Both the position numbers and the translations under genes were made by a program. Under the pieces are notes generated by a model. That model saw only the letters and a program-made list of their open reading frames with translations. It did no database searches and was not told where the DNA came from. A stretch of 64,000 nucleotides of DNA from an uncultured Clostridia bacterium (lineage in GTDB: Bacteria > Bacillota > Clostridia > TANB77 > CAG-508). Shown here one piece after another: positions 517 to 29,941 of this stretch. The stretch spans positions 145,395-209,394 of the forward strand of contig CAKPSF010000002.1 of assembly GCA_934183305.1 (NCBI GenBank). The letters run 5' to 3'. How positions within the stretch are numbered: the stretch's first letter is position 1; every line of letters begins with the position of its first letter.

Positions 517-546
517 TGTTTTTTCACTCCTTATTTATTATTTTTA

Positions 547-2823: not shown

Positions 2824-2826
2824 TTG

Positions 2827-3340: not shown

Positions 3341-3379
3341 AATCCCAAAATTAAAGAACGCTTAATTTGCGTTCTTTAA
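3341..3379 (-). terminator. intrinsic terminator after the GH73 gene
   Basis: TTAAAGAACGC / GCGTTCTTTAA 11-bp stem, followed on the minus strand by TTTTGGGATTTT. Confidence 0.8.
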
Positions 3380-3381
3380 TT

Positions 3382-4644: not shown

Positions 4645-4660
4645 AAGTTTCACCAATATT

Positions 4661-4689
4661 ATTTTAAATATAAAAAGTTTTTTTGTCAA
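4661..4689 (-). promoter_or_regulatory. sigma-A-type promoter (TTGACA-17-TAAAAT)
   Basis: rc of 4684-4689 is TTGACA and rc of 4661-4666 is TAAAAT, with a 17-nt spacer. Confidence 0.6.
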
Positions 4690-4753
4690 TTATTTAATAA
4701 ATATTGATTTTAATAAAATATTATAATAATATTATGATTATAAGGAGAAAATT

Positions 4754-5590
4754 ATGAGAAGAACAAATTTACGTAAGAAAAAAAGAGTAATGATACAAGA
4801 ATCAAATAAAAAGAGTTTAAAAATCCTCTTTGCATTAACTGCAATTATAATTTTAGCATTAATTGTTTATGTGTTTTTTATTCAAAACATATTCATAAAA
4901 AGCAACTTTGAAAAAGATAATATCGAGATTGCAAGCTTAAATGAAAATATACCTTTTTCTATTAAAAAAATAATACTATTCAGTAGTGCTACTGCAAATG
5001 CTGAAAATGTTAATCAATCTTTATTAAATTTAGATATATCACAATATTGTGATATTGGAATTTATTTAAATAATTCAGATATAGACAACAATATAATTCA
5101 AGCCTTATACATAGACAACATATCAATTTCAACCCCCGAGCTTGGTAGCCCTTGTTTATATATGAAAAGAGTCACAGACTTAGGAAAATGTAGTTTTGAC
5201 GAGAAAAATATTATAAATCAGAAACTAGATTTTAATATAATAGATATTAATTCAGATATTAATTACGATAATCTAGAAATGTATAGCAATGCTTCCACTC
5301 CAATCTCAATTGGCTTTTACAATAGAAGTATAAAAAAAGATTATTTAACAGATTTAAGAGAAATTGTATATAACGGTACATTATTAAAGAAAGCAGCCAT
5401 ACCAGTAAAAAGCCTAGAATGTAACGTTTCATTTACAATTAATATTATAACTACTTCAAACGAACATTATATTTGTAACATTAGTTTTGATGTTCCTCTT
5501 CAAGACGGGGAAGGCTCAATTGCAGACACAGGTTACGCAACAATGGAAATCAACACAGCAAACTCATATAAGTTTTTAAGGATAAAATAA
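4754..5590 (+). CDS. membrane-anchored hypothetical protein
   Basis: 278-aa ORF with AAGGAG RBS, one N-terminal TM helix and its own terminator. Confidence 0.75.
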   Translation: MRRTNLRKKKRVMIQESNKKSLKILFALTAIIILALIVYVFFIQNIFIKSNFEKDNIEIASLNENIPFSIKKIILFSSATANAENVNQSLLNLDISQYCDIGIYLNNSDIDNNIIQALYIDNISISTPELGSPCLYMKRVTDLGKCSFDEKNIINQKLDFNIIDINSDINYDNLEMYSNASTPISIGFYNRSIKKDYLTDLREIVYNGTLLKKAAIPVKSLECNVSFTINIITTSNEHYICNISFDVPLQDGEGSIADTGYATMEINTANSYKFLRIK

Positions 5591-5710: not shown

Positions 5711-5717
5711 CGGATTA

Positions 5718-5793
<76 letters not shown>

Positions 5794-6168: not shown

Positions 6169-7107
6169 TTATTCGAACATTGCTTGCAAGGCTTTTCTGA
6201 ATATATCTTTTACCATATCATAGCCACCATCTACAAGTTCTGTAAAAATAGTAGCCCCAACACCCGAATTAACCTCTAAAACATAGAGTTCATCATCAGT
6301 TGTTTGGATTATATCAATAGTAGCGAAATTAATATTCATTGCCTTTCCAGCTGTAACAGCTAATTGAGCTATCTTCTCATAAAGCTCACTGCCTTTTTCA
6401 AAAACTGTTGGTATTGCCCCTCCACTTAAATTATGCTTCCAAGATATTTCAAATTTTTCCCCTTTCGCAGGAACATATTCCATATCTAAAAGCTTTAAGT
6501 TTTCAGTTACAACAGATTTTTCTGGCAAATTAATGCCATCGATTAATGAGCGTAAGTTGGAAACTCCGTCTCCAATAACATATGGCTTAGTTTTTCCATA
6601 TATCAAATGCACCTCTCCATTCAAATAAAATGTTCTGTATTCAGTAACAATATTATAGTATGGACAAATGCTCACAGACGATTGGCTAGCAAAAAGTTTT
6701 TGCAAAGCCTTTTCGATTTCCTTCATATTATGGCAAAGCGTCACGCCTTGTCCCTCACACCCATTATTGGGCTTAACGACAACTGTTCCATGCTTCATAA
6801 GCTCAGAAATAACCGTTAAGGATATTCCTGCATCGCTAATGCACCCGCTCCTTGTAGCCGGATTAAATATCATTGTGTGTTCAATTATAGGCACATTTTG
6901 AGATTTTAATACCTCATATGTTGCATATTTATCACACGCAATATCTCCCGCTGCTTCAGGGTTAATGTCAAAGCGATTACCTACCACATGTCTAACCTTG
7001 TTGCCTTTTGAAAGTTGAAGAATCCAATCATATGAAAGTTTCTTCATCTCTATGCCCATTTCAGAGCACAACTCTCGCATCAAAACGTGAAAAGACCTTT
7101 CTTCCAT
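6169..7107 (-). CDS. ATP-grasp family ligase (RimK / cyanophycin-synthetase-N-like), monocistronic
   Basis: 312-aa ORF. DKYATYEVLKSQNVPI...VVVKPNNGCEGQGV...YVLEVNSGVG fits the ATP-grasp fold. Has its own promoter and terminator. G+C is visibly higher than in neighbours. Confidence 0.65.
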   Translation of the reverse strand: MEERSFHVLMRELCSEMGIEMKKLSYDWILQLSKGNKVRHVVGNRFDINPEAAGDIACDKYATYEVLKSQNVPIIEHTMIFNPATRSGCISDAGISLTVISELMKHGTVVVKPNNGCEGQGVTLCHNMKEIEKALQKLFASQSSVSICPYYNIVTEYRTFYLNGEVHLIYGKTKPYVIGDGVSNLRSLIDGINLPEKSVVTENLKLLDMEYVPAKGEKFEISWKHNLSGGAIPTVFEKGSELYEKIAQLAVTAGKAMNINFATIDIIQTTDDELYVLEVNSGVGATIFTELVDGGYDMVKDIFRKALQAMFE

Positions 7108-7171
7108 AAGTATACTCCTTTCGTAGTATAGGTTCTTTGTTTAGATGACCGTTTATTTGTACAACATTTAT

Positions 7172-7200
7172 ATTATACCTCTTTTCATTTATTATGTCAA
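7172..7200 (-). promoter_or_regulatory. consensus sigma-A promoter (TTGACA-17-TATAAT)
   Basis: rc of 7195-7200 is TTGACA and rc of 7172-7177 is TATAAT. Confidence 0.7.
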
Positions 7201-7221
7201 CTTTAATGTATTCTACTTTTG

Positions 7222-7806
7222 CTAAAAATTCTTCCCTTTTGAAATCAATGCTTCATCCATCTGCTCTGTTCTTTTTATTATTCCAATAAAATAAACACCC
7301 ATACTATGTTTTATATTTCTAATATTCACTTTTAAATTTTTTGAAGTATATACATTTTTCATATCTAACAATTCTCTTTTTAATACCTCTATCACTGACC
7401 AAGATATCAAAAGTACACTTTCAATCTCTTCCAAATTAACATTAAACAACGCCAATGGTTTGCATAACTTTTTGATTATGTTAGTAATACTCGTAGCAGT
7501 ATTAATCGAAGAATATGTATATGTAATAATACATACTATAAAAAATTTAAACATTATCCAACATGCATCACTAATATTACTAATTACAATATTAATTAAA
7601 AAAGTAAGAATAATATATGGAATTATTTTTTTGATTTTTTTTATGATTTTTTTCAAGGATATCTTAAATATAATTATTAAACATATATTTCCAAACACAA
7701 TTATTGAGAATAAAGCCACTGAATTAGGTAAGAAAAATATAGAAGTTACTATTGTTACAAATAGCAAAAAACTAATCAATTCCACATTAAACTCCTTTTC
7801 TTCCAC
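7222..7806 (-). CDS. ecfT: ECF transporter transmembrane (T, CbiQ-family) component, unusually short
   Basis: 194-aa polytopic ORF overlapping the ATPase gene by 20 nt. The C-terminal RTEQMDEALISKG resembles the EcfT coupling-helix region. Confidence 0.6.
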   Translation of the reverse strand: MEEKEFNVELISFLLFVTIVTSIFFLPNSVALFSIIVFGNICLIIIFKISLKKIIKKIKKIIPYIILTFLINIVISNISDACWIMFKFFIVCIITYTYSSINTATSITNIIKKLCKPLALFNVNLEEIESVLLISWSVIEVLKRELLDMKNVYTSKNLKVNIRNIKHSMGVYFIGIIKRTEQMDEALISKGKNF

Positions 7807-9204: not shown

Positions 9205-9309
9205 ATTAGCGGAATGCGAAAATAAATAAGCATAACAATTTAACTTTTATTTGCCCCAATAACAACTTCCCGTTTATTGAGTCTTTACTATTTATTTTCT
9301 ACTCTAATT
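9205..9309 (-). promoter_or_regulatory. THF (folT-motif) riboswitch aptamer
   Basis: Minus strand reads AAUUAGAGUAGAAAAUAAAUAG...ACGGGAAGU...CUUAUUUAUUUUCGCAUUCCGCUAAU. P1 is AUUAG/CUAAU. P2 is a 12-bp stem, GAAAAUAAAUAG/CUUAUUUAUUUUC. The GAGUAG, GGGAxG and GCAUyCCGCU blocks match the THF-I consensus as I recall it. A downstream UUUCUUUU/AAAAGAAA hairpin abuts the SD. Confidence 0.7.
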
Positions 9310-14797: not shown

Positions 14798-15715
14798 TTA
14801 TCTTTTATATTCTTCATTTGTAAATTCTACTCTGTCTGCACTTGATACATTTGCTGTTGTTATATTTGTTCCTTTTCCTACAAATAATTTTTGATTTTCA
14901 TCTATCCTTGCTGTTTTTCCACTTTCCATTGTTGAATTACTTATATATAATTGATTATTTGTTTCTCCAGCTGAGCCTCTTAATACTAAACCTGCTGAAA
15001 GCAATGTGCATCTATCCATATACACTTTATTGTTTGAATCGTTTGCTTTACTTCCGCCTCCTATATATAAGCATCCCCAATTTCCATCGCCAACACTTTC
15101 TCCATGTTTTCCTTTATATGGTCCACTTTGTAATGTTGCATTTTCTACATATGCTTCTCCATTTTCTCCTTGTGCAAAATATATTCCTCCATGCACATAT
15201 CCATCAAATGTTCCTCCATATACATACAATTTTGCCCCAGCATTATTTTGTAATCCTGAATGTACTCCATAAACACTTCCAGAATAAAATCTCATTTCTC
15301 CACTATTACTAATTCCTATAGAATACACTTCAGCAACATGTCCACTTGAGGCATCAGCAAATACATTTGTATTTGTAATACTCATTGTGGCACCTGTTCC
15401 ATTCTCAATTCCATATGCATTGTTTTCATCAGAATTAACATTTATTTGGGTATTTGTAATAGTAGCTGTAGAGCCTTCACCTGCCTCATTATAAATTCCA
15501 TGTGCATCTTTTTTCTTAGAATCGACATTTATATTAGTATTTGTAATACTCATTGTAACATCAGTCCAATTATTAATGCCATATGCCTCGTTTTCATCGG
15601 AATTAGCATTTATATTAGTGTTTGTAACAGTAATTTTAGAGTTCGTATAATTTACTACTGTTTGTACTATTCCTTCTTTTGAATCTCCAGTTACTTCTGC
15701 TTTTTCTATATTCAT
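14798..15715 (-). CDS. C-terminal piece of frameshift-split pseudopilin-anchored beta-helix repeat protein
   Basis: Repeats ITNTNIN(A/V)xSDENxAYGI x4. Its frame is open upstream of the annotated Met and continues the upstream ORF after a +1 shift near 15747-15758. Confidence 0.7.
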   Translation of the reverse strand: MNIEKAEVTGDSKEGIVQTVVNYTNSKITVTNTNINANSDENEAYGINNWTDVTMSITNTNINVDSKKKDAHGIYNEAGEGSTATITNTQINVNSDENNAYGIENGTGATMSITNTNVFADASSGHVAEVYSIGISNSGEMRFYSGSVYGVHSGLQNNAGAKLYVYGGTFDGYVHGGIYFAQGENGEAYVENATLQSGPYKGKHGESVGDGNWGCLYIGGGSKANDSNNKVYMDRCTLLSAGLVLRGSAGETNNQLYISNSTMESGKTARIDENQKLFVGKGTNITTANVSSADRVEFTNEEYKR

Positions 15716-16649
15716 TATTCCATAATTTACTATTGAAAAGCATATTCCGTTTATTTGCAGTACATTTTACTGTAGAATTTTTAATTTGCATATTAGGTAA
15801 TGGTGTGGATTTTGATATTTTTACCCCTTGAACATTTCCATCTGCACTACTATTTGCTTCTATTACAGAACTTTCAATATTTGCATTACTTGCTTGCACT
15901 TGTAATCCATACGCATGTTTACTATTTTCAGCATATACTTCACATTTTCTCATGTAAAATTCATTACTTATTTTAACCTTTATTGATAATACTGTTCCTG
16001 AACTATTAATATTATTTACATATTCTCCACCTATCAAATTAAAGTTTTCTCCTTCTGCATCTATCAATATAAAGTTCGAAGTTATAGCATCATTAATTTT
16101 GGATTCTATTTTACTTCCTTGTAACATTCCATTTATTGTTGCTGTTGTTGATGCTCCAAAAACTATACCTGAAGTACTTGTTGTAAAGCTTAATGTATTT
16201 CCACCTAAATTTAATTCTACATTTTTATTTATTGTTAATTTATTTGCTTCTTCTGTGTTTTTTAGTAACACAACAACCACATTGTTATTTTCATCTTTAT
16301 ATATTCCTGCTACTGCATTTTCTTTTGTTGAATCTGCATTTGCTGTTGTTTCTCCGTTCACATCAGCTATTGCTTTACTTAAGGTTGTATAATATGAAAA
16401 TTCATATTTTTCTTGTAACTCTGCTACTGTTGGCATTATTTCTTGTGTATCTAGTACACCTTCATAATATTTTAATAAATCTTCTTCTCTTTTAGTCGCA
16501 TCTATATAATCTTTTTGGGCGTTTCTCGCATGCGCTATTATTCCATCTCCTGTTATTGCATTTATTGCTACTACTGCTAATATTAATAACACAACAATTG
16601 TTATTATTAATGCAATTAAGGTAATACCTTTATTCTTTTTTCGTTCCAT
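15636..16649 (-). CDS. N-terminal piece of the same split gene (pseudopilin-like N-terminus KNKGITLIALIITIVVLLILA)
   Basis: AAAGGAGGAG RBS and a strong promoter. The last ~40 residues (NKRNMLFNSKLWNNEYRKSRSNWRFKRR...) look out of frame. Confidence 0.7.
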   Translation of the reverse strand: MERKKNKGITLIALIITIVVLLILAVVAINAITGDGIIAHARNAQKDYIDATKREEDLLKYYEGVLDTQEIMPTVAELQEKYEFSYYTTLSKAIADVNGETTANADSTKENAVAGIYKDENNNVVVVLLKNTEEANKLTINKNVELNLGGNTLSFTTSTSGIVFGASTTATINGMLQGSKIESKINDAITSNFILIDAEGENFNLIGGEYVNNINSSGTVLSIKVKISNEFYMRKCEVYAENSKHAYGLQVQASNANIESSVIEANSSADGNVQGVKISKSTPLPNMQIKNSTVKCTANKRNMLFNSKLWNNEYRKSRSNWRFKRRNSTNSSKLYEL

Positions 16650-16678
16650 ATTTTTCTCCTCCTTTGATTTCTATTGAA

Positions 16679-16707
16679 ATTGTATAACAATTTGTTTTAT
16701 ATGTCAA
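16679..16707 (-). promoter_or_regulatory. promoter (TTGACA-17-TACAAT)
   Basis: rc of 16702-16707 is TTGACA and rc of 16679-16684 is TACAAT. Confidence 0.65.
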
Positions 16708-16857
16708 TTACTTTTTTCTAAAGCAACAAGTTTAAGTTACCTTGGTCAGTGTATATTTGTTAAGTCACTTTTCTTATATTATTCACAAAGTTTTTTATTT
16801 TAATCTTTTTTAACTTTGAATTGTTCGGAATAACTCCAAAACAAAGCCAAAATTTAA

Positions 16858-16892: not shown

Positions 16893-17001
<109 letters not shown>

Positions 17002-17146: not shown

Positions 17147-17177
17147 AAAATAGCTTAACATATAGTTAAGCTATTTT
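17147..17177 (-). terminator. original terminator of tRNA-Met, now separated from the gene by the prophage
   Basis: AAAATAGCTTAAC / GTTAAGCTATTTT 13-bp stem directly abutting the tRNA 3' fragment. Confidence 0.7.
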
Positions 17178-17222
17178 TGGTAGCGAAGGGGAGATTCGAA
17201 CTCTCGACCTGCCGGGTATGAA
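17178..17222 (-). repeat. att repeat copy 1: 45-bp 3' fragment of tRNA-Met
   Basis: tggtagcgaaggggagattcgaactctcgacctgccgggtatgaa is identical to 23661-23705. Confidence 0.95.
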
Positions 17223-17350
17223 TTTTGTAATTCGCAGTAGTGTATCTAAAAAGCAAATACCTAAATTGTGTTTTAAAAAATTCTTACCATATTTCTTTAC
17301 CATATTAAAAGGGTAGCCCGTAGGGTGCGGACAGCCATACGGCGCTTGAG

Positions 17351-17470
17351 TTATTTGTTAAGTTCATTGCTTACTTTATTTGTAAAATCGGTTTCTAAGT
17401 ATCTATATGTAAGTAAAATAGATAACATTAATGCTATTATAAGTACTGATATAAATAAAAGTTTTTTCAT
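17351..17470 (-). CDS. 39-aa membrane peptide downstream of the phage repressor
   Basis: GGAG RBS. MKKLLFISVLIIALMLSILLTYRYLETDFTNKVSNELNK. Followed by a GC-rich hairpin at 17305-17346. Confidence 0.4.
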   Translation of the reverse strand: MKKLLFISVLIIALMLSILLTYRYLETDFTNKVSNELNK

Positions 17471-17483
17471 CATTTTCTCCTTT

Positions 17484-17702
17484 CTATTTTGCTGGGTATT
17501 GCTTTTTTATATTAGTAATTTTTGCTATATAATCTATTGAAACTTTATAATATTCAGCATAAATTTTTATTACGTCTAAAGGCGGAACTCTTTCCCCATT
17601 TTCATATCTTATGTATGAGTTTTTTGATATATATGCTATTTTTGAACATTCTTCTTGTGTCATATCTTTATCTTCTCTTAAATCTCTTAATCTAGTTTCC
17701 AT
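17484..17702 (-). CDS. XRE-family HTH repressor (phage cI/Cro-like)
   Basis: 72 aa. LRDLREDKDMTQEECSKIAYISKNSYIRYENGERVP is an HTH_3 pattern. GAGGTG RBS. Divergent from the phage operon. Confidence 0.85.
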   Translation of the reverse strand: METRLRDLREDKDMTQEECSKIAYISKNSYIRYENGERVPPLDVIKIYAEYYKVSIDYIAKITNIKKQYPAK

Positions 17703-17732
17703 TTTTACACCTCAAAAAAATTATACAAAATT

Positions 17733-17774
17733 ACTCCATTTGGGGTTGACAAAATACCCCATTTGGAGTATTAT
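17733..17774 (+). promoter_or_regulatory. phage early promoter (TTGACA-17-TATTAT) bracketed by operator half-sites
   Basis: ACTCCATTTGGGG (17733-17745) and CCCCATTTGGAGT (17757-17769) flank the -35 at 17746-17751. The -10 is at 17769-17774. Confidence 0.65.
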
Positions 17775-17806
17775 TATTTTAGATTTTTTTATAGGAGTGT
17801 TTTATT

Positions 17807-18091
17807 ATGAAATTAAGTGAAGATTTTAAATTTTTAAATTTAAACGCAATCAGAAGAAAAGATGCTGAAAAATTAAAGCCAGAAGAACAATTTTTTTATA
17901 CTGTTAATTTATTAGACCATGATAATAATCCAGTAAGATTTTTCAGCTTTGATAATGCTGTAAATATCAGTTTAATTAAAGCTATAAACGAAGGAAAACT
18001 AAAAGGCTTACAAGATTGTCTAGTTCATTTTGAATTAGCTTTTTCTAATAACAATTGGGTAGTAAGGCTTTTAAATATAGAATTTGAATAA
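17807..18091 (+). CDS. phage hypothetical protein (position compatible with ssDNA-binding g5p-like role)
   Basis: 94-aa ORF with AGGAG RBS. First gene of the rightward phage operon. Confidence 0.6.
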   Translation: MKLSEDFKFLNLNAIRRKDAEKLKPEEQFFYTVNLLDHDNNPVRFFSFDNAVNISLIKAINEGKLKGLQDCLVHFELAFSNNNWVVRLLNIEFE

Positions 18092-18149
18092 AATTAATTG
18101 CTTTTAAGTTTGTGCTTCAAACAAGCTTTACTAAAGAAAGGAGTCAAAT

Positions 18150-18281
18150 ATGAACGAAATTGAATTATTAACCGCAATACACAGTCAATTAGGTTACATT
18201 TGTACCTTTCTTGTTTTCTTTATCATAGTTCTTTTATGCTACTTTGCATATAAGTTCTTTGATATGTTCTTTCACATTTAA
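18150..18281 (+). CDS. 43-aa phage membrane peptide
   Basis: AAAGGAG RBS. MNEIELLTAIHSQLGYICTFLVFFIIVLLCYFAYKFFDMFFHI. Confidence 0.5.
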   Translation: MNEIELLTAIHSQLGYICTFLVFFIIVLLCYFAYKFFDMFFHI

Positions 18282-18302
18282 CAAAAGAAAGGAGCTGAGC
18301 AT

Positions 18303-18476
18303 ATGGAAGAAACTGCAGCATCTACTATTTTATCTGAAATAGTAACATCTAAAATGCTTCAAGGTGTTTTAAATGAGATTACTGGTTTATTACCTATTGT
18401 TATACCTGTTATGATTTCATTCATAGCAATAAGAAAAGGTATAGCATTTGTGCAAAGTGTTTTGCATTCTGCTTAG
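18303..18476 (+). CDS. putative major coat protein (g8p-like), copy 1
   Basis: 57 aa with AAAGGAG RBS. ...KMLQGVLNEITGLLPIVIPVMISFIAIRKGIAFVQSVLHSA has one TM helix and a basic tail. Confidence 0.55.
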   Translation: MEETAASTILSEIVTSKMLQGVLNEITGLLPIVIPVMISFIAIRKGIAFVQSVLHSA

Positions 18477-18523
18477 TTTAAGAAACTAACAAAAGAAACT
18501 AACAAAAGAAAGGAGTGATTGGT

Positions 18524-18673
18524 ATGTTATCTTCAATAGTAACAGCTGATATGCTAAAAGGTGTTTTAAATGAAATTACTGGTTTATTACCTATCGTTAT
18601 ACCTGTTATGATTTCATTCATAGCAATAAGAAAAGGTATAGCATTTGTACAAAGTATTTTACACGCTGCTTAG
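18524..18673 (+). CDS. putative major coat protein (g8p-like), copy 2 (tandem paralog)
   Basis: 49 aa with AAAGGAG RBS. The core GVLNEITGLLPIVIPVMISFIAIRKGIAFVQS is identical to copy 1. Confidence 0.55.
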   Translation: MLSSIVTADMLKGVLNEITGLLPIVIPVMISFIAIRKGIAFVQSILHAA

Positions 18674-18750
18674 TATATTTTTATTCTAATCCCCCAGGGC
18701 TACATTATAAATATTTTGTAGTCCTTATTTTTTTAAGAAAGGAGAATTTC

Positions 18751-19350
18751 ATGAAGAATAAAATTTTAACTGTTTTTCTCATTGTTATATTAATTAGTTT
18801 TTGTTTCATTGGTAATAGTGCATTTGCTAGTTCAACTTTTACTTTTACTGATAGATTTGGAAACGAAAGAACTGTTCCTTCTTTTCCTGAGAGTGATATT
18901 ATTAGTAGTTCTAATTCTTTTGCTGTTGTAAATACTGGTAACTATAAAAACACTTTGTATGTTGCTACTGGTGATGGTTTTTTCTATGGTGGTGGAAGTG
19001 TTTTTTGTTCTACACCTTGCTATATGATTTATCTTGTTAATGGCGAATACGTTATTCAACCGAACACATGCACCGCTAATGCTCGTTTGTGTTCTGCTAG
19101 TGAATTATGCTATTTTTCTACTGGTTTATATGCTGACAAAGATAAATCTAGTGTAATTGTTGAACCTGGTGGAGATTTTTTTCATCTGGCTCCACTGACC
19201 CTGGAACCAATCCTGGAGAAGGTGGAGATGACTCAGGAGATAACAACAACGATAGCTGGTTTAGCAAAATTGTTAATTCCATTACTAGTTTGCCTAGTAG
19301 GATTTTGGAAGGCTTGGCAAGCTCTTTCGAAGTTATTACACAAGGCATAA
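18751..19350 (+). CDS. phage g3p-like adsorption/minor coat protein, N-terminal part (frame 0)
   Basis: Signal peptide MKNKILTVFLIVILISFCFIGNSAFA. The frame continues into 19290..19937 after a -1 shift at the T7 run 19176-19182. Confidence 0.6.
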   Translation: MKNKILTVFLIVILISFCFIGNSAFASSTFTFTDRFGNERTVPSFPESDIISSSNSFAVVNTGNYKNTLYVATGDGFFYGGGSVFCSTPCYMIYLVNGEYVIQPNTCTANARLCSASELCYFSTGLYADKDKSSVIVEPGGDFFHLAPLTLEPILEKVEMTQEITTTIAGLAKLLIPLLVCLVGFWKAWQALSKLLHKA

Positions 19351-19937
19351 AGGGATTAGCTGATTTACTTAAATATATTAATCCCTTTGATGAAAATTTT
19401 ATTTTAAAAGGTATTATTGAAACTATTGGAAATATTTTAAGTTATATTAATCCATTTAGCGAGAACTTTTTTGGTTGGAAATTAATTGAGCTTTTTGGAA
19501 ACTTACTACAAAAGCTTTTTATTCCTTCAGAAGAGTCTGTAAATAATCTTGTTGATAGCGTTAAATCTAAATTTGCCTTTATTGATTATATTAAAAGTTC
19601 TGTTAATGACATTAATAGTATTTTAAATGGTAGTGTTCCTGCTCCATCTTTAACAATTCATGTTTCAGATAGTTCTTTTACTACTGCTCAAGATATAAAA
19701 GTTTTAGATTTAACCTGGTATAAACAATTCAAAGAATTTGGAGATAAAATTATTACTGGTTTTATTTATGCTTTATTTATCTGGAGGATTTATATTGGAT
19801 TGCCAAATATTATTTCTGGTGCTGGTAGTACTATAAATGATGTTCCGGCCGAGGTTAGTGATATTCAAGCTTATGCTAAATTTGGATTTGGTCGTGCTAC
19901 TACTACAAAACGAGGAAAGGGGAATTTGAGAAATTGA
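19290..19937 (+). CDS. phage g3p-like protein, C-terminal part (-1 frame)
   Basis: The -1 frame is open from 19182 and reads SSGSTDPGTNPGEGGDDSGDNNNDSW (Gly/Ser/Asp linker), then a C-terminal domain with a TM helix. Confidence 0.6.
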   Translation: MPSRILEGLASSFEVITQGIKGLADLLKYINPFDENFILKGIIETIGNILSYINPFSENFFGWKLIELFGNLLQKLFIPSEESVNNLVDSVKSKFAFIDYIKSSVNDINSILNGSVPAPSLTIHVSDSSFTTAQDIKVLDLTWYKQFKEFGDKIITGFIYALFIWRIYIGLPNIISGAGSTINDVPAEVSDIQAYAKFGFGRATTTKRGKGNLRN

Positions 19938-20185
19938 TAGTTAATGGTATTTTATTAATTTTACAGGGTATTGTTAATATTTTATTAACTCCCCTTACGC
20001 CTTTGAATTGGCTTGCTGATACAGCAGTAAAAATATCTGTAATTTCGGATTTTATTAATATTGTTGCTTTTGTTTTACCTTGGAAGAATATTTTACCTAT
20101 ATTTATTTTTATATCAGCAGCATTCTTGTTTAGAGCCATTGTAGCTTTAATAAAAACTATTTGGGATTTATTACCTGTTTTATAA
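19934..20185 (+). CDS. phage minor coat/membrane protein (g6p-like)
   Basis: 83-aa hydrophobic ORF. Its TTG start overlaps the upstream TGA (TTGA). Confidence 0.55.
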   Translation: MIVNGILLILQGIVNILLTPLTPLNWLADTAVKISVISDFINIVAFVLPWKNILPIFIFISAAFLFRAIVALIKTIWDLLPVL

Positions 20186-20197
20186 TTGGAGTTTATT

Positions 20198-20353
20198 ATG
20201 TTTATTTTTATTATTATATTTTTTATTATTTTTGTTATTAGTTTTGTTTATTTTTTTTATAAAATTAAGATGTTAGAGGATGATGTTGAAAGCTTATATG
20301 ATAATTATATTCGTTACATAGAAAATAGCTTTAGGAGGAATAAAAATGCTTAG
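20198..20353 (+). CDS. 51-aa phage membrane peptide
   Basis: GGAG RBS. N-terminal MFIFIIIFFIIFVISFVYFFY. Overlaps the Zot-like gene start. Confidence 0.45.
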   Translation: MFIFIIIFFIIFVISFVYFFYKIKMLEDDVESLYDNYIRYIENSFRRNKNA

Positions 20354-21215
20354 TATATTTTTTACAGTATTAGAAGGTATTTTTCTTATGTTAAAATGGC
20401 CTTTATATATTTCACTTTCTTGTTTTGCTTTGTTTTTAGTTTTATGTGCCTTTTGGTTTTTATTTTATACATTTAAAGGAAAAAGATTAAAAAAAGGTTC
20501 TAGAAGATTCATTAAACAAGATGGATTTTTTAAGAAGATTTTTTATAAATTACCCAAACAAATAGTTGAAGATATATACGATAAAAATCCTGATTATTTT
20601 AACTATCAAGGTGTAATTATCTTTGAAGGTGTTCAAGGCTCTGGAAAAACTATGTCTATGATTGAATTTGCTATGCGTATTCAAGAAGAATATCCTAAAT
20701 GTCTTTGTACATCTAATTTAGCTTATAAACATGAAAATGTTCCTTTAGAAGATTGGAAAATGTTATTGAATTATAAAAATGATATATATGGTGTATTGGT
20801 TTTAATTGATGAACTACAAAATTGGTTTTCAAGTAATGACAGCAAAAATTTTCCGCCTGATATGCTTTCTATTATAACTCAAAACCGAAAAAATAGACGT
20901 ATTATATTAGGAACTTCACAGGTTTTTAGTATGTTAGCAAAACCTATTAGAACCCAAACCACCGAGCTACGTAGGTGTACTACGTTGCTCGGTGTACTGA
21001 CTATCGTTAGAAGATTTAGGCCAATTTTTGATAGTTCTGGAGAATTAAAAGAAATTAAAAGATTAGGTTCGTATTTTTTTATTCAAAATAAAAAATTAAG
21101 AGAAGCTTACGATACTTATAAAGTAATTGATAGACTTTCAGAGGTTGGCTTCCAGGAACTTAAAAACTTAATTGAGAATAATACTATTAATTTAATTAAT
21201 TATGGAAAGAAGTAG
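20346..21215 (+). CDS. Zot/g1p-like phage assembly ATPase
   Basis: Two N-terminal TM helices, Walker A GVQGSGKT and Walker B VLVLIDELQNWF. AGGAGG RBS. Confidence 0.75.
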   Translation: MLSIFFTVLEGIFLMLKWPLYISLSCFALFLVLCAFWFLFYTFKGKRLKKGSRRFIKQDGFFKKIFYKLPKQIVEDIYDKNPDYFNYQGVIIFEGVQGSGKTMSMIEFAMRIQEEYPKCLCTSNLAYKHENVPLEDWKMLLNYKNDIYGVLVLIDELQNWFSSNDSKNFPPDMLSIITQNRKNRRIILGTSQVFSMLAKPIRTQTTELRRCTTLLGVLTIVRRFRPIFDSSGELKEIKRLGSYFFIQNKKLREAYDTYKVIDRLSEVGFQELKNLIENNTINLINYGKK

Positions 21216-21223
21216 GTGTTTGT

Positions 21224-21412
21224 ATGTTAAATCCTTATTTTAGAATTTTATTGTTTTTTGGTTTTATGTCTTTTATTGATATTTTTGTTGATAGCCTTTG
21301 CCAACATTTATCTGCCAAACGTGCTCATTATAATTGTTCAAAATGTAGTAATTGGCGTTGTATGAGTTGTTATTGTAAAAATAAAGAAAGGAATTATAAA
21401 AATGAAAAATAA
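21224..21412 (+). CDS. phage small Cys-rich membrane protein
   Basis: 62 aa with a TM helix, then CSKCSNWRCMSCYC. AGGTG RBS. Confidence 0.5.
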   Translation: MLNPYFRILLFFGFMSFIDIFVDSLCQHLSAKRAHYNCSKCSNWRCMSCYCKNKERNYKNEK

Positions 21413-21596
21413 AGATTTTATAAATTTAGTTTTATATGGTTTAGGTATTTGTGTATTAACTTTTATATTTAATTATATTTTTAACATTTATGGAGTAAAA
21501 ACATTGCATAGATGTATTTGTATGTTAGCTATTGGTTTTTCAATTTATTTATATGTACCTTTTTATAAGTTATTTTTTAAAGAGTTACATAAATAA
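21402..21596 (+). CDS. phage small membrane protein
   Basis: 64 aa with two TM helices. Overlaps the upstream gene by 11 nt. Confidence 0.5.
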   Translation: MKNKDFINLVLYGLGICVLTFIFNYIFNIYGVKTLHRCICMLAIGFSIYLYVPFYKLFFKELHK

Positions 21597-21600
21597 AAAT

Positions 21601-21628
21601 TCGGAGGGTTCTTAGTAACACCCTCCGA
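21601..21628 (+). other. GC-rich hairpin upstream of rep (candidate replication origin / packaging signal)
   Basis: TCGGAGGGT-tcttagtaac-ACCCTCCGA, a 9-bp stem with no T-run after it. A second imperfect hairpin lies at 21630-21647. Confidence 0.4.
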
Positions 21629-21674
21629 GAGTTCCACCAGTGAAACTTTTTACAAAAATTTGGAGTAAAAATAT

Positions 21675-22703
21675 ATGATTGATACTATTAAAATTTATAC
21701 TATGATTAATAAAAATACATATGATAAAATTTACAACAATTCTATTATAAAGTCAAGTTATAATAAAAAAGATGGAGAAATTTATTACGAAATTGTAAAC
21801 GATAAATTAGAAGGTTCTTATAGCTCTAGTTTGTCGGTTCGTGTTGGTTCTGGTGTTAAATATAGATTTGTAAATATGTATTATTTAGAAATTGAAGGAA
21901 GTTATCACAAAATTATTAATGGCTATAATTCTCATAATGGCTATTATAATTTGCAAAGTATTGTTAAATGGCTTATAGGTGCTGTTGAGAATTCTTATAA
22001 TATTTCTTTGCCAAAATTTAATCATTGGTTCTTACAACGTCTTGATGTAGCTGTTTGTTTTGATTTAGAAAATAATGATACTGTTCGTAAGTATATTAAT
22101 AACTTGGCTTTATGTAGTTATGCTCGTCGTAATATTAAACATTATCAGGACGAAAGTATTTATTGTTCTGGTTCAACTACTACACTAAAGATATATAATA
22201 AGTTGTTAGAATTTAAAAAGCACGATATGAAAAAATTTTTCAATTCAAATTTTAATATTGATAGCTATATCAATAAAATAAAAGGCTTTATTAGATTTGA
22301 ATGTGAAATTAAAAAGAAAAAATTAGAAGATATTTATAATAAAAAATATATTAGAATTAAAAATGTAAGATATGAAGATTTTTATGAAATTTGGAAGTGT
22401 GAGTTTATGAAATTATTAAATTTTTTTGAAAGTGATTTAACGATTGTTAGAAATAAAGAAGATATTAAAAGAAGATTATATACTTGTTATGGAAATAGAA
22501 AAGCTAATATACTTTATACTTTTTATAGCTCTATTATTTTAGACGGTATTACAGAAGTTAAGAAAAATGTTCCTAAAGTAACATTTTATAGACATATTAA
22601 AGATTTGAAAGCTTGTAATATTGATTTATCACAAAAATATACTTTAACTGCTGTTAATGATACTATTGACTTTAATCCATTTGAGTGGAAAGAGGTTGTA
22701 TAA
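21675..22703 (+). CDS. rolling-circle replication initiator (Rep_trans / RstA-like)
   Basis: 342 aa. WFLQRLDVAVCFDLE, TLKIYNKLLEFKKHD and FIRFECEIKKKKL fit the Rep_trans motif pattern as I recall it. Confidence 0.7.
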   Translation: MIDTIKIYTMINKNTYDKIYNNSIIKSSYNKKDGEIYYEIVNDKLEGSYSSSLSVRVGSGVKYRFVNMYYLEIEGSYHKIINGYNSHNGYYNLQSIVKWLIGAVENSYNISLPKFNHWFLQRLDVAVCFDLENNDTVRKYINNLALCSYARRNIKHYQDESIYCSGSTTTLKIYNKLLEFKKHDMKKFFNSNFNIDSYINKIKGFIRFECEIKKKKLEDIYNKKYIRIKNVRYEDFYEIWKCEFMKLLNFFESDLTIVRNKEDIKRRLYTCYGNRKANILYTFYSSIILDGITEVKKNVPKVTFYRHIKDLKACNIDLSQKYTLTAVNDTIDFNPFEWKEVV

Positions 22704-23630
22704 ATGAAATGTTCTCAAGTTTTAGATAAATTCATTATGCAAAAAAGTGTTGAGGGAGATACTCTTGCTACAATTAGGCATTATTCTACCCATATTCAAT
22801 TTTTTATTAACTTTTATGGTGACAAAGATATAAATAATATTACTTATAAAACTTATCAGGAGTATATCTTCTATCTAAAAAATAAAGAAAAAGCTTCTTC
22901 TGGTTTTATTGGTAAAGGTTGCAAATTATCTAGTAGAACTATTAAAACATATGCTTCAGCATTAAAAACATTTTTAAGTTGGGCATATACTAATAAATAT
23001 TTGTATTTTAATATTGCAGCAAATATAAAAATGCCTAAATATAGCAAAAAAGTAATTACTATTTTATCTATTAATGATATTGATTGCTTAATTAATCATT
23101 TTGATACTACTACATATATTGGCATTAGGGATTTATTTATTGTTTCACTAATGTTAGACGCTGGTCTTAGATTAAGTGAGGTTGCTTATTTACACGTTTT
23201 TGATTTTGATATTGGTAAGAATGTTATAAAAGTATTTGGTAAGGGGCAAAAAGAAAGATATGTGCCTTTAACTCCATTTATTTTAGATTGTTATAAAAAG
23301 TACAAAAAAGCTTTTATTAATTATTTTAATAGATACCCTGAGTATGATGAAATAATATTTAAAAATATTGACGGTACTGATATAACTAGCAATGGTATTT
23401 CTTTAATGTTTAGACGTCTTAGACATAATATGAAAAACAAATTACATCCACACTTATTAAGACATACATTTGCGACATATTTTCTATTAAATGGCGGTGA
23501 TATTGAAACACTTAAAATTATTCTAGGTCATACAACTATATATATGAGCGAACAATATTTACATTTGGCCAATCAACTAAATTTACAAAATATGTCCCGT
23601 TTTTCTCCATTATCTAATATGAATAAATAA
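22704..23630 (+). CDS. tyrosine recombinase / phage integrase
   Basis: GLRLSEV (Arg), HPHLLRHTFATY (H-x-x-R) and LGHTTIYMSEQYLH (His...Tyr). Adjacent to the att/tRNA. Confidence 0.9.
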   Translation: MKCSQVLDKFIMQKSVEGDTLATIRHYSTHIQFFINFYGDKDINNITYKTYQEYIFYLKNKEKASSGFIGKGCKLSSRTIKTYASALKTFLSWAYTNKYLYFNIAANIKMPKYSKKVITILSINDIDCLINHFDTTTYIGIRDLFIVSLMLDAGLRLSEVAYLHVFDFDIGKNVIKVFGKGQKERYVPLTPFILDCYKKYKKAFINYFNRYPEYDEIIFKNIDGTDITSNGISLMFRRLRHNMKNKLHPHLLRHTFATYFLLNGGDIETLKIILGHTTIYMSEQYLHLANQLNLQNMSRFSPLSNMNK

Positions 23631-23631
23631 A

Positions 23632-23658
23632 AAAAGTCCTATTTTTAGGACTTTTCTT
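23632..23658 (+). terminator. terminator after integrase
   Basis: AAAAGTCCT-attttt-AGGACTTTT. Confidence 0.7.
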
Positions 23659-23660
23659 AT

Positions 23661-23737
23661 TGGTAGCGAAGGGGAGATTCGAACTCTCGACCTGCCGGGT
23701 ATGAACCGGATGCTCTAGCCAACTGAGCTACTTCGCC
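23661..23737 (-). tRNA. tRNA-Met (CAT); could be Ile2 if lysidinylated
   Basis: rc GGCGAAGTAGCTCAGTTGGCTAGAGCATCCGGTTCATACCCGG...CTTCGCTACCA. The 3' 45 nt (23661-23705) is att repeat copy 2. Confidence 0.9.
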
Positions 23738-23755
23738 ATATAAAAGACAAATACT

Positions 23756-23784
23756 ATTATAATGGTTTTATATGTATTTGTCAA
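23756..23784 (-). promoter_or_regulatory. consensus promoter of tRNA-Met (TTGACA-17-TATAAT)
   Basis: rc of 23779-23784 is TTGACA and rc of 23756-23761 is TATAAT. Confidence 0.75.
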
Positions 23785-23842
23785 GAAATTTTACAAAATA
23801 TTTTAAAGGTCGCAAGTTAATAGCGACCTTTATATATTTTAA

Positions 23843-24136
23843 TTATCTTTCTTCTCTTGAATTGTCTTCTTTATCTTTTATAACTTCATTATACATTTGT
23901 CTCATAGCTGCTTTAGTTTCAGGGTTAATTTTCTTTGCAAACCCTGTTTTATTATTGCTTTGTTTGCCTGAAACAATTGCTTGTTGAATTTTATCTTCAT
24001 CTCTTTTCAAATCAGATAAAGCTTTTCTTAAATCTTCTGGTAATTCCACTTCTTGTTCATAATATTCATTATTAGTTCCAAACATTTCTTTCAACGCCAT
24101 AATGAAATTGCTTCTTTTTTTAGTTGTTGTACTCAT
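23843..24136 (-). CDS. 97-aa charged hypothetical protein downstream of dnaE
   Basis: ORF followed by the hairpin AAAGGTCGC...GCGACCTTT (23806-23832). Confidence 0.6.
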   Translation of the reverse strand: MSTTTKKRSNFIMALKEMFGTNNEYYEQEVELPEDLRKALSDLKRDEDKIQQAIVSGKQSNNKTGFAKKINPETKAAMRQMYNEVIKDKEDNSREER

Positions 24137-28155: not shown

Positions 28156-28241
28156 AGTCTCTCTCCTTATATAATATACATAAGATACATATATTCAAAT
28201 ATTTACTAATATGTATCTTATTGATTCATTTTTACCTATAA

Positions 28242-28421
28242 TCAGGAAGGAATAAATCTCTTTAATACTAATACTTTACTGTATGCATTCCTTAAATTTA
28301 ATAACTGATTTAATAATAACGCATCTTTTCCTCTTGCAATGTAGAAACTTCCAGCATTAACTAATACTATGCTACCTTTACTTTTTATTTGTAACAATCC
28401 AAGCATTTTACTAAATCCCAT
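28242..28421 (-). CDS. 59-aa MutS-domain-I-like mini protein
   Basis: AAAGGAGG RBS 7 nt before the ATG at 28421. IVLVNAGSFYIARGKDALLLNQLLNL parallels the MutS N-terminal segment [29 protein letters not shown]. Confidence 0.5.
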   Translation of the reverse strand: MGFSKMLGLLQIKSKGSIVLVNAGSFYIARGKDALLLNQLLNLRNAYSKVLVLKRFIPS

Positions 28422-28471
28422 TTTAAGCCTCCTTTGGTATTTATAGAGGCGCATTTTTGTGCTGAAAGCAC

Positions 28472-28497
28472 AAAAAAATGCGCCCCGTTAGGGGCGC
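28472..28497 (-). terminator. GC-rich intrinsic terminator after pilin-FGE gene A
   Basis: Minus strand GCGCCCC-UAAC-GGGGCGC followed by AUUUUUUU. Confidence 0.8.
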
Positions 28498-28666
28498 CCC
28501 GTTAGGGTAATTTTTAATATCTTCGCAAAATCTATTATCATAGATTTTGTGTGATTTTAAAAATTACCTTTTTAACGTATTGCATTCGTTAAAATCTCTC
28601 GACTTTAACTTTTCTATTTAAAATTACTTCCAGCAAAATATAGTATTTCGCCCTCAGCGTTCAGTC

Positions 28667-29941
28667 CTACATATATAAAAGTGGACGGAAAGAAATGCCA
28701 ACGTTAGCACTGGTCGTGAAGATGCCGCCACGATAGCTCGTATAGTAGCGGCTGAAGTTGTAAAAACCACCACGTTGAGTGCAAGGAGAGTTGGAAAGGC
28801 TAGAGGTTTCTGTTGACCATTCAATACAATTGCTTGCCATATCATATACATTACATATTGTATCTTTTGTTCCACTATAACTTGTTCCTGATGTTCCTGT
28901 ATTTGCTAAACTACTATTTACACTTGTTTTACTTGCATATGTGCTATTATCTCCAAATTCTTGGAAAAAGATTATTGCTGTATCCCATGCATAACTATTT
29001 ACTAAATCACTTTCATATGGTTTATTTGTATACATATTTTGGCATCTCTCTGATGCTTGTAATTGTGTTACACAATTCCATACTTGTGAATTTGCTTTAC
29101 TTACTAACTTTAGTTTTTTTCCACTTTCTGCTACATATCCTGTCCAATCTATAGAACTACTACTATTTGATTTACTTATATTTGAAGCGTCATAATTTTC
29201 TACTCTTGCTTCATATCTTGCTATATAATAACCCCCACTTGTATTTGCTTTTGTACAAAATTCTGCTATATTTTTTGCTATTGCATTACTTTGGGTTGTA
29301 TTATATTCCGTATAGTTATAAGAATTCCTCATTATAGAAGTTGGGGTTGCATATGCACTCGCATTTTGTGCTACTGTATACGTTCCATCCTCATTTTTAG
29401 TAAAATTTTCATATCTTCCCAAATTTATTGTTTTTGCATTTGCTTCTGTTTTTGCTACATCTGTATATATTTTTTCTACTGGTATCCATACAAATTGATT
29501 GCCTGCTGTTTCTACTTGTGTATCTTCTACTACTATTCCTTTTGTTACATCTATATCATCTGCTGTATAACTAGTTGTACTATCTACTAATATTTTAAAT
29601 CCTGCTGGTAACATTATTTTATTTCCATACTCGTCTGTTAATGGTGTATTATCTGTTGTACTTAATACTTTATTTAAGCTATCTTTTAATGTTTTTGCTC
29701 CTGAACCTCCACCATTTATTTTTGAACTTTCTGTATCTAAATATTCTGAATATTCATCTAATCTTGCTTGTTCATTTGTTTGTGCTTCTGAATATTTTGT
29801 CTTTGCATTTTGTGCATGATTTAGTATTCCATTTCCACTTACTGCACTTATTGCTACTACTGCTAAGATTAATAACACAATTATTGTGATTATTAAGGCA
29901 ACTAGTGTAATACCTTTGTTCTTTTTTAGTTTTTGTTTCAT
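28667..29941 (-). CDS. pseudopilin-like N-terminus + FGE-sulfatase/C-type-lectin-like C-domain surface protein (paralog A)
   Basis: MKQKLKKNKGITLVALIITIIVLLILA. C-terminal GGYYIARYEAR, ICNVYDMASNCIEWSTE and RGG...ISFRPLLYM fit the FGE/SUMF1 pattern. 424 aa. Confidence 0.75.
   Translation of the reverse strand: MKQKLKKNKGITLVALIITIIVLLILAVVAISAVSGNGILNHAQNAKTKYSEAQTNEQARLDEYSEYLDTESSKINGGGSGAKTLKDSLNKVLSTTDNTPLTDEYGNKIMLPAGFKILVDSTTSYTADDIDVTKGIVVEDTQVETAGNQFVWIPVEKIYTDVAKTEANAKTINLGRYENFTKNEDGTYTVAQNASAYATPTSIMRNSYNYTEYNTTQSNAIAKNIAEFCTKANTSGGYYIARYEARVENYDASNISKSNSSSSIDWTGYVAESGKKLKLVSKANSQVWNCVTQLQASERCQNMYTNKPYESDLVNSYAWDTAIIFFQEFGDNSTYASKTSVNSSLANTGTSGTSYSGTKDTICNVYDMASNCIEWSTETSSLSNSPCTQRGGFYNFSRYYTSYRGGIFTTSANVGISFRPLLYM

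Follow-up and report, generated by a model that had tools for sequence, protein, structure and literature searches.

An inovirus-like prophage in a Clostridia tRNA-Met gene and the probable programmed frameshift in its g3p-like gene

A 64,000-nucleotide stretch of DNA from an uncultured Clostridia bacterium (contig CAKPSF010000002.1 of assembly GCA_934183305.1; the whole stretch is called the window here, and all positions refer to it) carries between 17178 and 23737 an insertion in a tRNA-Met gene. The insertion's gene set resembles that of filamentous phages, and its g3p-like adhesin gene is divided between two reading frames at a run of seven T residues. The locus raises two questions: what the insertion is, and whether the divided gene is broken or is read in both frames. 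A sequence-only reading, made from the letters and their open reading frames (ORFs) before the present analysis, had described an inovirus-like prophage with intact-looking genes and had taken the split at the T-run for decay. We are fairly confident that an intact-looking inovirus-like prophage in tRNA-Met, together with a frameshift-coupled g3p-like gene, is jointly the best explanation of this locus. The prophage is a new filamentous (inovirus-like) example of an already known type. The frameshift-coupled, dual-anchor adhesin gene, as far as sequence comparison can tell, would be a new variation on a known mechanism, undescribed in this phage group.

The boundaries of the insertion could be placed exactly. 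On the minus strand, 23661-23737 is an intact tRNA-Met(cat) according to ARAGORN, with which Rfam agrees, and its promoter at 23784-23756 matches the consensus at 12 of 12 positions. A repeat search of the window returned a 49-nt direct repeat with one mismatch (17174-17222 and 23657-23705), in which 46 nt are perfectly identical (17177-17222 and 23660-23705). In both copies 45 nt are the 3' part of tRNA-Met, forming the attachment (att) cores: attL at 17178-17222, a displaced fragment of the tRNA gene, and attR at 23661-23705, within the intact gene. An exact repeat of 45 nt is far beyond chance. These results confirm the earlier claim of an insertion in tRNA-Met between perfect 45-bp att repeats, with exact identity extending to 46 nt. 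The displaced fragment remains beside the original intrinsic terminator of the tRNA (17152-17172, minus strand; hairpin AGCTTAAC/GTTAAGCT followed by a T-run), and the tRNA gene has been rebuilt by the phage copy. A tyrosine integrase gene (22704-23630; here and below, genes lie on the plus strand unless stated otherwise) adjoins the att core, and a phage-supplied bidirectional terminator (23632-23655, terminator-like on both strands) serves the plus-strand integrase gene as well as the rebuilt minus-strand tRNA-Met. GC skew reverses sign at the left and right borders of the element, because the host genes point leftward and the insert rightward. The element comprises 17223-23660 plus one att core, giving a circular length of about 6,483 nt. 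The bacterium that carries it is uncultured, low in G+C, and from the human gut.

Further support comes from the same site in other assemblies. An exact look-up of the 97-aa flanking protein (23843-24136) yielded 17 contigs, which were compared with the window by BLAST and inspected at their junctions; L-numbers here and below denote the loci and contigs compared. Seven independent metagenome contigs of the same species (L029, L030, L031, L032, L033, L035, and L037) have an empty site, each with a single core, an intact tRNA-Met directly followed by the old terminator, and no 6,483-bp insert. Their flanks are mostly 96-99.9% identical to the window, with one flank at 90.6%. A precise empty attB, which the sequence-only reading had named as a check, therefore exists in seven contigs, and the terminator abutting the left tRNA fragment is the tRNA's own, as that reading had it. 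The occupied allele, with the same gene set, is found in at least three other assemblies (L028/L038, L039, and L040), and L041 carries its attR side. The insert is a discrete, probably mobile unit.

Its genes identify it as phage-derived. All ORFs listed by the sequence-only reading were found near the positions it gave, and their products were searched against Pfam and PHROG with hidden Markov models (HMMs). The morphogenesis ATPase of Zot/pI type (20346-21215, 289 aa), which has a transmembrane (TM) region N-terminal to its Walker A motif, matches PF05707 at E 3e-7 and 30.5 bits, above the cutoff of 20.3 bits. A tblastn search aligned it at 38% identity (E 1e-52) with the Zot annotated in bajarodino virus 76, and it is 33-41% identical to the Zot/ATPase genes in metagenomic Inovirus records of pig and rodent faecal origin. 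The initiator of rolling-circle replication (21675-22703, 342 aa) had been assigned to Rep_trans; there is no PF02486 match at E <= 0.1, and the protein instead belongs to the G2P family of filamentous phages (PF05144, E 1.7e-14; PF05155 or G2P_X_C, E 1e-4; phrog_702, E 9e-30), with a weak tblastn match to f1 gene II/X. This placement in the G2P/Phage_CRI family strengthens the phage assignment. The proposed XRE repressor and tyrosine integrase beside the tRNA both hold: the 72-aa Cro/C1-type repressor (17484-17702, minus strand), divergent from the structural operon, matches HTH_3 at E 1.7e-13 and phrog_8 at E 1.3e-16, and the 308-aa integrase matches PF00589 at E 3.9e-28 and phrog_1 at E 1.9e-50. 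From left to right, the operon encodes a predicted oligonucleotide/oligosaccharide-binding (OB)-fold protein, a 43-aa TM protein, two coat-like paralogues, the g3p-like protein, a g6p-like protein, a 55-aa protein, and the ATPase, an order that matches genes V, VII/IX, VIII, III, VI, and I of the Ff phages.

Among the ORFs of the 6,483-nt element there is no capsid, terminase, or tail match in Pfam at E <= 0.1, and the Pfam and PHROG searches found no secretin, conjugation, or relaxase gene in it. PHROG matches to tail, head-morphogenesis, or Rz-like families fall only on the g3p-like ORFs, the Zot ATPase, and the 55-aa protein (p55), all of them below the Zot match in Pfam. A nucleotide search of the element against GenBank phages gave no match, and the phage is without a close counterpart in IMG/VR, where the best Zot match reaches 65%.

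Relatives were collected by scanning one genome per species for the Rep protein. The scan gave 21 loci, of which 18 lie in gut metagenome-assembled genomes (MAGs) labelled Clostridia, Clostridium sp. (including CAG:780), Clostridiaceae, Lachnospiraceae, Eubacteriales, or Bacilli; the window's own genome is not among the species representatives, and the best Rep identity was 83%. Gene order is common to most of these relatives, and most of the small ORFs recur in relatives. In four of them, att repeats of 46-78 nt made of a tRNA 3' end bound elements of 6.3-7.7 kb: L007 in tRNA-Met (6,530 bp), L001 and L016 in tRNA-Phe (7,710 and 7,704 bp), and L013 in tRNA-Thr (6,319 bp). An IMG/VR search with the ATPase of L002 returned no relatives. 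Together, the HMM matches, the Ff-like synteny, the empty sites, and this family of syntenic prophages in tRNA genes back the identification of the insertion as an inovirus-like prophage.

We considered whether the insertion could instead be a non-phage integrative element, or a defective satellite unable to form particles alone. Several of its small ORFs have no family match and it has no secretin gene, as either would allow, and the 77-nt attP junction of a circular form (23705 joined to 17223) had no exact match in the one metagenome contig collection scanned; the carrier samples (ERZ28613985, ERZ27287290, ERR7738661, and the Hadza runs) are ENA and Logan assemblies outside that collection. 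Absence of a secretin is expected in a single-membrane host. Against these possibilities stand the complete Ff-like succession of modules, which includes the Zot/pI ATPase and the G2P initiator, the lack of genes for conjugation or a relaxase, and the retention of the same complete gene set among diverged relatives. We regard either alternative as extremely improbable.

The second question concerns the g3p-like gene. Its frame 0 (18751-19350) encodes 199 aa and reads ...PGGDFFHLAPLTLEPILEKVEMTQEITTTIAGLAKLLIPLLVCLVGFWKAWQALSKLLHKA*, and an AlphaFold2 (AF2) model of the product (pLDDT 67) has a signal helix at residues 2-23, strands over 29-136 that form a beta-rich N-domain, and a helix at 163-198 that corresponds to a coat-like C-terminal segment. 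Within this ORF lies the heptamer U_UUU_UUU (19176-19182), read in frame 0 as GAT TTT TTT CAT. The -1 frame opens at 19164, four codons upstream of the T7 run, and reads FFSSGSTDPGTNPGEGGDDSGDNNNDSWFSK... to 19937. Its continuation beyond the run (19183-19937) consists of a SSGSTDPGTNPGEGGDDSGDNNND linker followed by a C-domain with a TM anchor, and aligns with the -1 products of ten relatives. A shift of -1 at the run would thus join the N-domain to the linker and C-domain. Peptides diagnostic of the two products are SSVIVEPGGDFFHLAPLTLEPILEK for frame 0 and SSVIVEPGGDFFSSGSTDPGTNPGEGGDDSGDNNNDSWFSK for the predicted trans-frame protein. The resemblance to Ff g3p is confined to architecture and gene position, and neither ORF has a g3p-family match in Pfam or PHROG, where weak unrelated matches (E >= 0.02) are all that appear.

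Comparison with relatives argues that the layout is maintained. The window and 18 other diverged phages (L002, L004, L005, L006, L007, L009, L010, L013, L017, L027, L045, L046, L048, L050, L070, L071, L072, and L080) share the two-frame arrangement at G+C contents of the locus from 27 to 51%. All 19 have a run of four to ten T residues with T_TTT_Y in the frame-0 register, and the shift needed is always -1, none of the genes being in frame or requiring +1; the -1 frame becomes open 0-44 nt upstream of the run. The run has seven T residues in the window and L013, eight in five loci, nine in four others, ten in L080, and only four or five in six (L005, L006, L009, L045, L050, and L072). The -1 products are alignable from FF through a linker rich in Gly, Ser, Asp, Asn, and Thr into a C-domain ending with a TM segment. 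We conclude from these alignments that the gene is probably expressed by programmed -1 ribosomal frameshifting, and the reading of the split as decay does not survive a layout kept, always at -1, in 19 diverged phages.

Homopolymers are classic contingency loci and frequent sites of assembly error, and homologues with a single ORF exist (L001, L015, L066, and L067), so that the run might be taken for a phase-variable tract, a recent inactivating mutation, or a sequencing error in a gene that is switched off or decaying. The T7 run, though, is identical in the window and in the four occupied contigs, which represent three independent assemblies (two contigs come from one scaffold). None of the 19 phages leaves the -1 configuration, tracts of T4-T5 lack the length to vary, the frame-0 tail is conserved and homologous to the coat proteins (described below), unlike random read-through, and the single-ORF homologues have stops in the corresponding frame. 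We give this explanation very little credence.

Alternatively, the two frames could be separate genes, one for a frame-0 coat fusion and one for an independently initiated -1 membrane protein of the g3p C-domain or g6p type, with the Gly/Ser stretch untranslated. Gene callers do predict a 207-aa product from a TTG at 19314, and in one relative, L079, a coat fusion and a g3p-like protein are truly encoded apart. Against this, the -1 ORF of L005 has no ATG, GTG, or TTG in 249 codons, and in eight loci the first start lies 31-63% of the way into the -1 ORF, inside the conserved C-domain. In the window the first canonical start is codon 43, past the conserved SWFSKI motif. All 19 phages have a -1 frame that is open from the T-run, and the conserved Gly/Ser/Asp/Asn/Thr-rich linker and an S/G-W-F/L-D motif are encoded upstream of any start. 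Moreover, called starts disagree between near-identical contigs (200 aa vs 208 aa), and a -1 product made in this way would have no signal peptide. Two independent genes are therefore very unlikely in our judgement.

The third alternative also yields a joined protein. RNA polymerase slipping on the T-run could add one U, and the resulting mRNAs would be translated straight into the linker and C-domain, since one added nucleotide has the same outcome as a -1 shift. The many long homopolymers (T7 to T10) fit such slippage, as does downstream RNA structure that is mostly unconvincing: stem-loops lie 0-8 nt after the run at all 11 sites folded, and they are clearly beyond composition-matched shuffles only in L004 (z -3.2) and L017 (z -3.6), the others falling between -1.6 and +0.3, with the window at -1.4. 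We consequently set aside a downstream stimulatory structure as strong support for frameshifting, two of the eleven sites being convincing; an upstream Shine-Dalgarno-like stimulator, seen by eye in the window and L013, was inconsistent over the loci and was likewise dropped. Polymerase slippage is hard to reconcile with the six loci that have the same layout at T4 or T5, runs that are short for it, and with the frame-0 T_TTT register kept at all sites, which matters for tRNA re-pairing and not for a polymerase. On balance we think it unlikely that polymerase slippage accounts for the layout, and a mixture of ribosomal and transcriptional slippage may operate.

Under the preferred explanation, ribosomal frameshifting, most ribosomes would finish in frame 0 and make a 199-aa protein with the secreted N-domain on a coat-like anchor. 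A fraction would slip -1 on U_UUU_UUU (19176-19182) and make a protein of about 395 aa, in which the same N-domain would be followed by the Gly/Ser/Asp linker and the g3p-like C-domain with its membrane anchor.

Several lines of evidence underlie the proposal that frame 0 ends in a coat-protein copy. At every one of the 18 loci tested, the best alignment of the final 45 frame-0 residues was to the adjacent coat-like small ORF, with local-alignment z scores of 3-14 against shuffled tails; for the window's tail against coat proteins the z score is 8.9. When eleven tails were compared with eleven coats as profiles in hhalign, the match had 98.4% probability and an E value of 7e-15 over 43 columns, extending to the very C-terminus. 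A tail resembles the coat family of the phage group to which it belongs, with a mean score of 61 within group A and of 23-32 between group A and the other two groups. The stretch in which both frames are open has a G+C content of 0.42, vs 0.28 upstream and 0.31 downstream, and G+C at third codon positions of frame 0 rises about threefold there in most loci, as constraint on both frames would predict. In this overlap the window differs from its sibling L080 by 18 substitutions, of which nine are synonymous in frame 0 but only four in the -1 frame. In single-ORF homologues the corresponding frame is interrupted by one to seven stops in 18 cases out of 19, and the exception had faulty coordinates. 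Homologues of the frame-0 product fall into 27 clusters, all of 184-248 aa, none being a fusion of about 400 aa, and the coat-like tail is kept even in clusters whose N-domain is unrelated.

The same module terminates many other proteins. A census with a coat profile of 15 rows against 1.84 billion representative proteins gave 575 matches; among the best 150, 87 are at least 150 aa long and 61 are plain coat-sized. The coat match lies at the C-terminal end in every listed protein of at least 150 aa, and 82 of the 87 have a signal-peptide-like start. At one locus, L079 (728-3138), a stand-alone gene specifies a protein of 215 aa with a signal peptide and, at its end, a full coat module; beside it lie a plain coat gene of 56 aa and a distinct g3p-like gene of 577 aa. 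Judged by this sequence, natural coat-fusion proteins exist without frameshifting. The clade thus has three layouts: a single fused g3p-like gene, separate coat-fusion and g3p-like genes, and the frameshift-coupled pair seen in the window.

Exchange of the N-domain is suggested by the sibling phage L080 (its 1-5099 corresponds to 18619-22732). Identity between the two is 99% over 18619-18749 and 87% over the stretch that begins at the T-run (19176) and reaches 22732, and the N-domain cassette that L080 carries between 18749 and its T10 run is unrelated to that of the window, so that the cassette boundary coincides with the slip site.

Taken together, these features can be accommodated in a broader proposal, which we put forward tentatively and rate at somewhat below even: that phages of this clade display one outer domain in two ways through an overlapping gene and a -1 frameshift, as a coat fusion in many copies and as a g3p-like tip protein in few. 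The efficiency of slipping would set the ratio, and N-domain cassettes would be exchanged exactly between signal peptide and slip site. This would amount to natural dual phage display and to a new principle of virion architecture and host range. The coat-anchored form would sit along the filament or in the membrane and the second form would be anchored at the tip; the short form might enter the filament, block superinfection at the membrane, or have another role.

A number of observations weigh against these interpretations. T4-T5 sites are weak slippery sequences, and at T7-T10 runs transcriptional slippage or length variation at the DNA level could occur. The comparison of tails with coats is one of hydrophobic-helix profiles and may inflate significance, and one of the 15 rows in the census profile is the window's own tail. 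The coat-like proteins themselves match no curated family in Pfam or PHROG and nothing in GenBank phages. The label of major coat protein is that of a candidate, resting on size, a single TM helix, a basic C-terminus, synteny, and the abundance of homologues. A Foldseek search of the PDB gave no meaningful structural neighbour for the frame-0 product or its N-domain (best E 0.27), and receptor binding by this domain is assumed from gene position. The missing attP junction described above belongs here as well. Finally, the window and the carrier contig L038 have zero differences across the element, and the adjacent dnaE is equally identical; the identity is therefore no sign of recent acquisition, and that of occupied strains says nothing about recent activity.

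Among the closest known systems are the Ff phages (f1/M13/fd, genus Inovirus). Like them, the element has a genome of about 6.4 kb and an order of genes for an ssDNA-binding protein, small minor coats, and a major coat (all of these being candidates here), a g3p-like adhesin, a g6p-like protein, and a pI/Zot ATPase; its adhesin has a signal peptide, a Gly/Ser linker, and a C-terminal anchor, and its initiator is of the G2P family (PF05144). Unlike them, it integrates by its own tyrosine integrase, carries an XRE repressor, and has no secretin (g4p). Its initiator gene stands at the end of the operon, the TM region of its ATPase precedes Walker A, and its coat and g3p-like proteins match no Ff family. 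Gene III of the Ff phages is a single ORF, whereas the adhesin gene here needs a -1 shift.

Programmed frameshifts are established in structural genes of tailed phages, such as T7 gene 10A/10B, lambda G/GT, and those of the Listeria phages PSA and A118, where the products are made at a fixed ratio and both are used for virion assembly. Those genes resemble the present one in having a common N-terminal part with alternative C-termini and a slip site that is homopolymeric or of the form X_XXY_YYZ. They differ in that they belong to dsDNA phages and add a C-terminal extension, whereas here each frame ends in a different membrane or virion anchor and the frame-0 end is a coat copy. In hybrid phage display, a foreign domain led by a signal peptide is placed on pVIII or on the C-domain of pIII with the wild-type coat genes present; the arrangement described here is natural and holds both formats in one overlapping gene, with incorporation into particles being a prediction.

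Inoviruses of this general kind have been catalogued before, as pI-bearing elements of 5-16 kb with direct repeats, many in tRNA genes or beside an integrase, in hosts that include gut Clostridia, and canonical att sites are reported for 582 inovirus prophages (PMC6813254). Inoviruses of Enterocloster are secreted in vitro and in vivo (PMC10061712); the earlier remark that filamentous phages of Gram-positive hosts are sparsely characterised is therefore no longer wholly true of gut Clostridia. Neither paper uses the word frameshift in its main text, and slippage does not occur in that of PMC6813254. Searching the literature on inoviruses or filamentous phages in combination with frameshifting, we found no reported case, and bajarodino virus 76, which is the nearest record in GenBank, carries a single gene of 460 aa without slippage annotation.

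With gut Clostridia inoviruses already catalogued, the value of the prophage itself is as a clean, population-validated example with an exact att site, an empty allele, and a full gene map. The recoding, if true, would change annotation, since the split gene is now called as two unrelated ORFs, and would be the first programmed frameshift we find reported for a filamentous phage. The locus suggests a natural coat-fusion adhesin equivalent to the multivalent phage-display format of engineers. Such an adhesin bears on how filaments might stick to cells, pili, or mucus in the gut, and the recoding could provide ready-made display scaffolds for use in Gram-positive hosts. Because the cassette boundary falls cleanly at the slip site, it offers a testable model of host-range switching.

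The remaining genes of the element are small. Between attL and the repressor, and co-oriented with the latter, a 40-aa single-TM peptide (17351-17473, minus strand) is called as a gene in other assemblies and has no PHROG match. The first gene of the operon (17807-18091) encodes a 94-aa predicted OB-fold protein, kept in relatives and a candidate ssDNA-binding analogue of g5p. Its best AF2 model has a pLDDT of 92 and the topology b1-b2-b3-a-b4-b5, the remaining four models scoring 58-74. The top Foldseek matches are ssDNA-binding OB folds, namely PrgE (E 4.5e-3), Teb1, RPA, and SSB; no Foldseek match reached E <= 1e-3, and a profile search of PDB sequences gave none. At the g7p/g9p position lies a 43-aa TM protein (18150-18281), a candidate minor coat kept in L001, L013, L004, L015, and L017, with no family match.

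Coat-like protein A (18303-18476, 57 aa) has one TM helix and a basic C-terminus and no Pfam or PHROG match; its homologues form 244 clusters, those listed all being of 49-66 aa. Protein B (18524-18673) is its tandem paralogue and is called with the same length of 49 aa in other assemblies. The duplication spans 18326-18480 and 18523-18677, a 155-nt direct repeat at 90% identity and 197-nt spacing, and L015 likewise has two copies. Counting the frame-0 tail, the phage has three coat-type modules. Downstream of the g3p-like gene follow an 83-aa multi-TM protein that is g6p-like by position (19934-20185; kept in L001, L006, L011, L013, and L015, and called as an 83-aa gene in L080) and the 55-aa TM protein (20186-20353; kept in L001, L011, and L013, with weak PHROG matches of unknown function). 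Between the ATPase and the initiator are a 62-aa TM protein with a Cys-rich tail (21224-21412), called in other assemblies and without family match, and a 64-aa two-TM protein (21402-21596) with a homologue in L001 at 62% identity.

Because of these gene families and the Ff-like order, a life cycle can be proposed in which the XRE repressor would hold down a rightward promoter flanked by two operator-like palindromes, the G2P-family initiator would start rolling-circle replication, and the predicted OB-fold protein would coat the single-stranded DNA. The membrane-anchored Zot/pI ATPase would then drive extrusion across the envelope without a phage secretin, the filament being assembled from the two coat-like paralogues and small membrane proteins.

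Non-coding features were also mapped. The rightward promoter, TTGACA-17-TATTAT at 17746-17774, lies between repressor and operon and is of sigma-70 type with 11 of 12 positions matching; together with the candidate operators, the region spans 17734-17774 on the plus strand. Two 12-nt near-palindromes, CYCCATTTGGRG, at 17734-17745 and 17757-17768 bracket the promoter and, on sequence grounds, are the candidate operators. After the coat genes, a hairpin with a T-run (18696-18725, plus strand) is terminator-like and weak (z -0.7); its placement is equivalent to that of the terminator after gene VIII in Ff. Upstream of rep, an intergenic, perfect 9-bp G+C-rich hairpin (21601-21628) stands out from shuffles when the ssDNA of the two strands is folded (z -3.0 and -3.6), and is a candidate origin, packaging signal, or terminator. 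Another G+C-rich hairpin (17316-17345), in the non-coding left arm (17223-17350), was viewed as a candidate origin or packaging element and rejected as a structured element, the 128-nt region folding no better than shuffles (z -0.5 and +0.9). Apart from the tRNA, no Rfam family occurs within the element.

Three loci, L004 (6763-7657), L017 (2613-3501), and L009 (about 6600-7500), have a Zot/pI ATPase gene split around Walker A by a +1 frame change, as in ...YGLTIFCGRQRWW* followed by ...GGGKTISMVEY. The break is identical in L004 and L017, two loci of separate MAGs, and involves no homopolymer; in the window the ATPase gene is uninterrupted. A second recoding site might explain the split, as might decay or an error of assembly. 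In L041 (1-2442, corresponding to 21362-23803), rep is identical to that of the window and 26 differences (about 3%) all fall within the integrase gene, a pattern that suggests recombination between related phages at the same site.

The integrase/att module of L080 targets tRNA-Phe (5715-5763 in the window). The window's own tRNA-Phe (5718-5793), the att site of L001, L016, and L080, is single-copy and unoccupied; a second prophage there was considered and rejected, as the 3' part of this tRNA has no second copy.

Directly left of attB, 14798-16649 (minus strand) encodes proteins with a prepilin-like N-terminus (KGITLIALIITIVVLLILAVVAI) and internally repeated modules, and paralogues lie elsewhere in the window, near 29814-29931 and at 38364-39554. 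Type IV pili are common inovirus receptors. An intergenic (TG)n microsatellite at about 16920-16975 lies left of the displaced terminator, and near it L031 lacks about 175 nt (16676-16849 in the window). Rfam places a THF riboswitch (RF01831, 58 bits) at 9205-9308 on the minus strand. The 65 differences between the window and L038 cluster at 28419-29514 (61 of them) and 15879-16497. An RT-14 RNA (RF02921, 83 bits, E 5.7e-10) at 28180-28321 on the minus strand, upstream of an 85-aa ORF beside dnaE, adjoins the stretch that holds those 61 differences.

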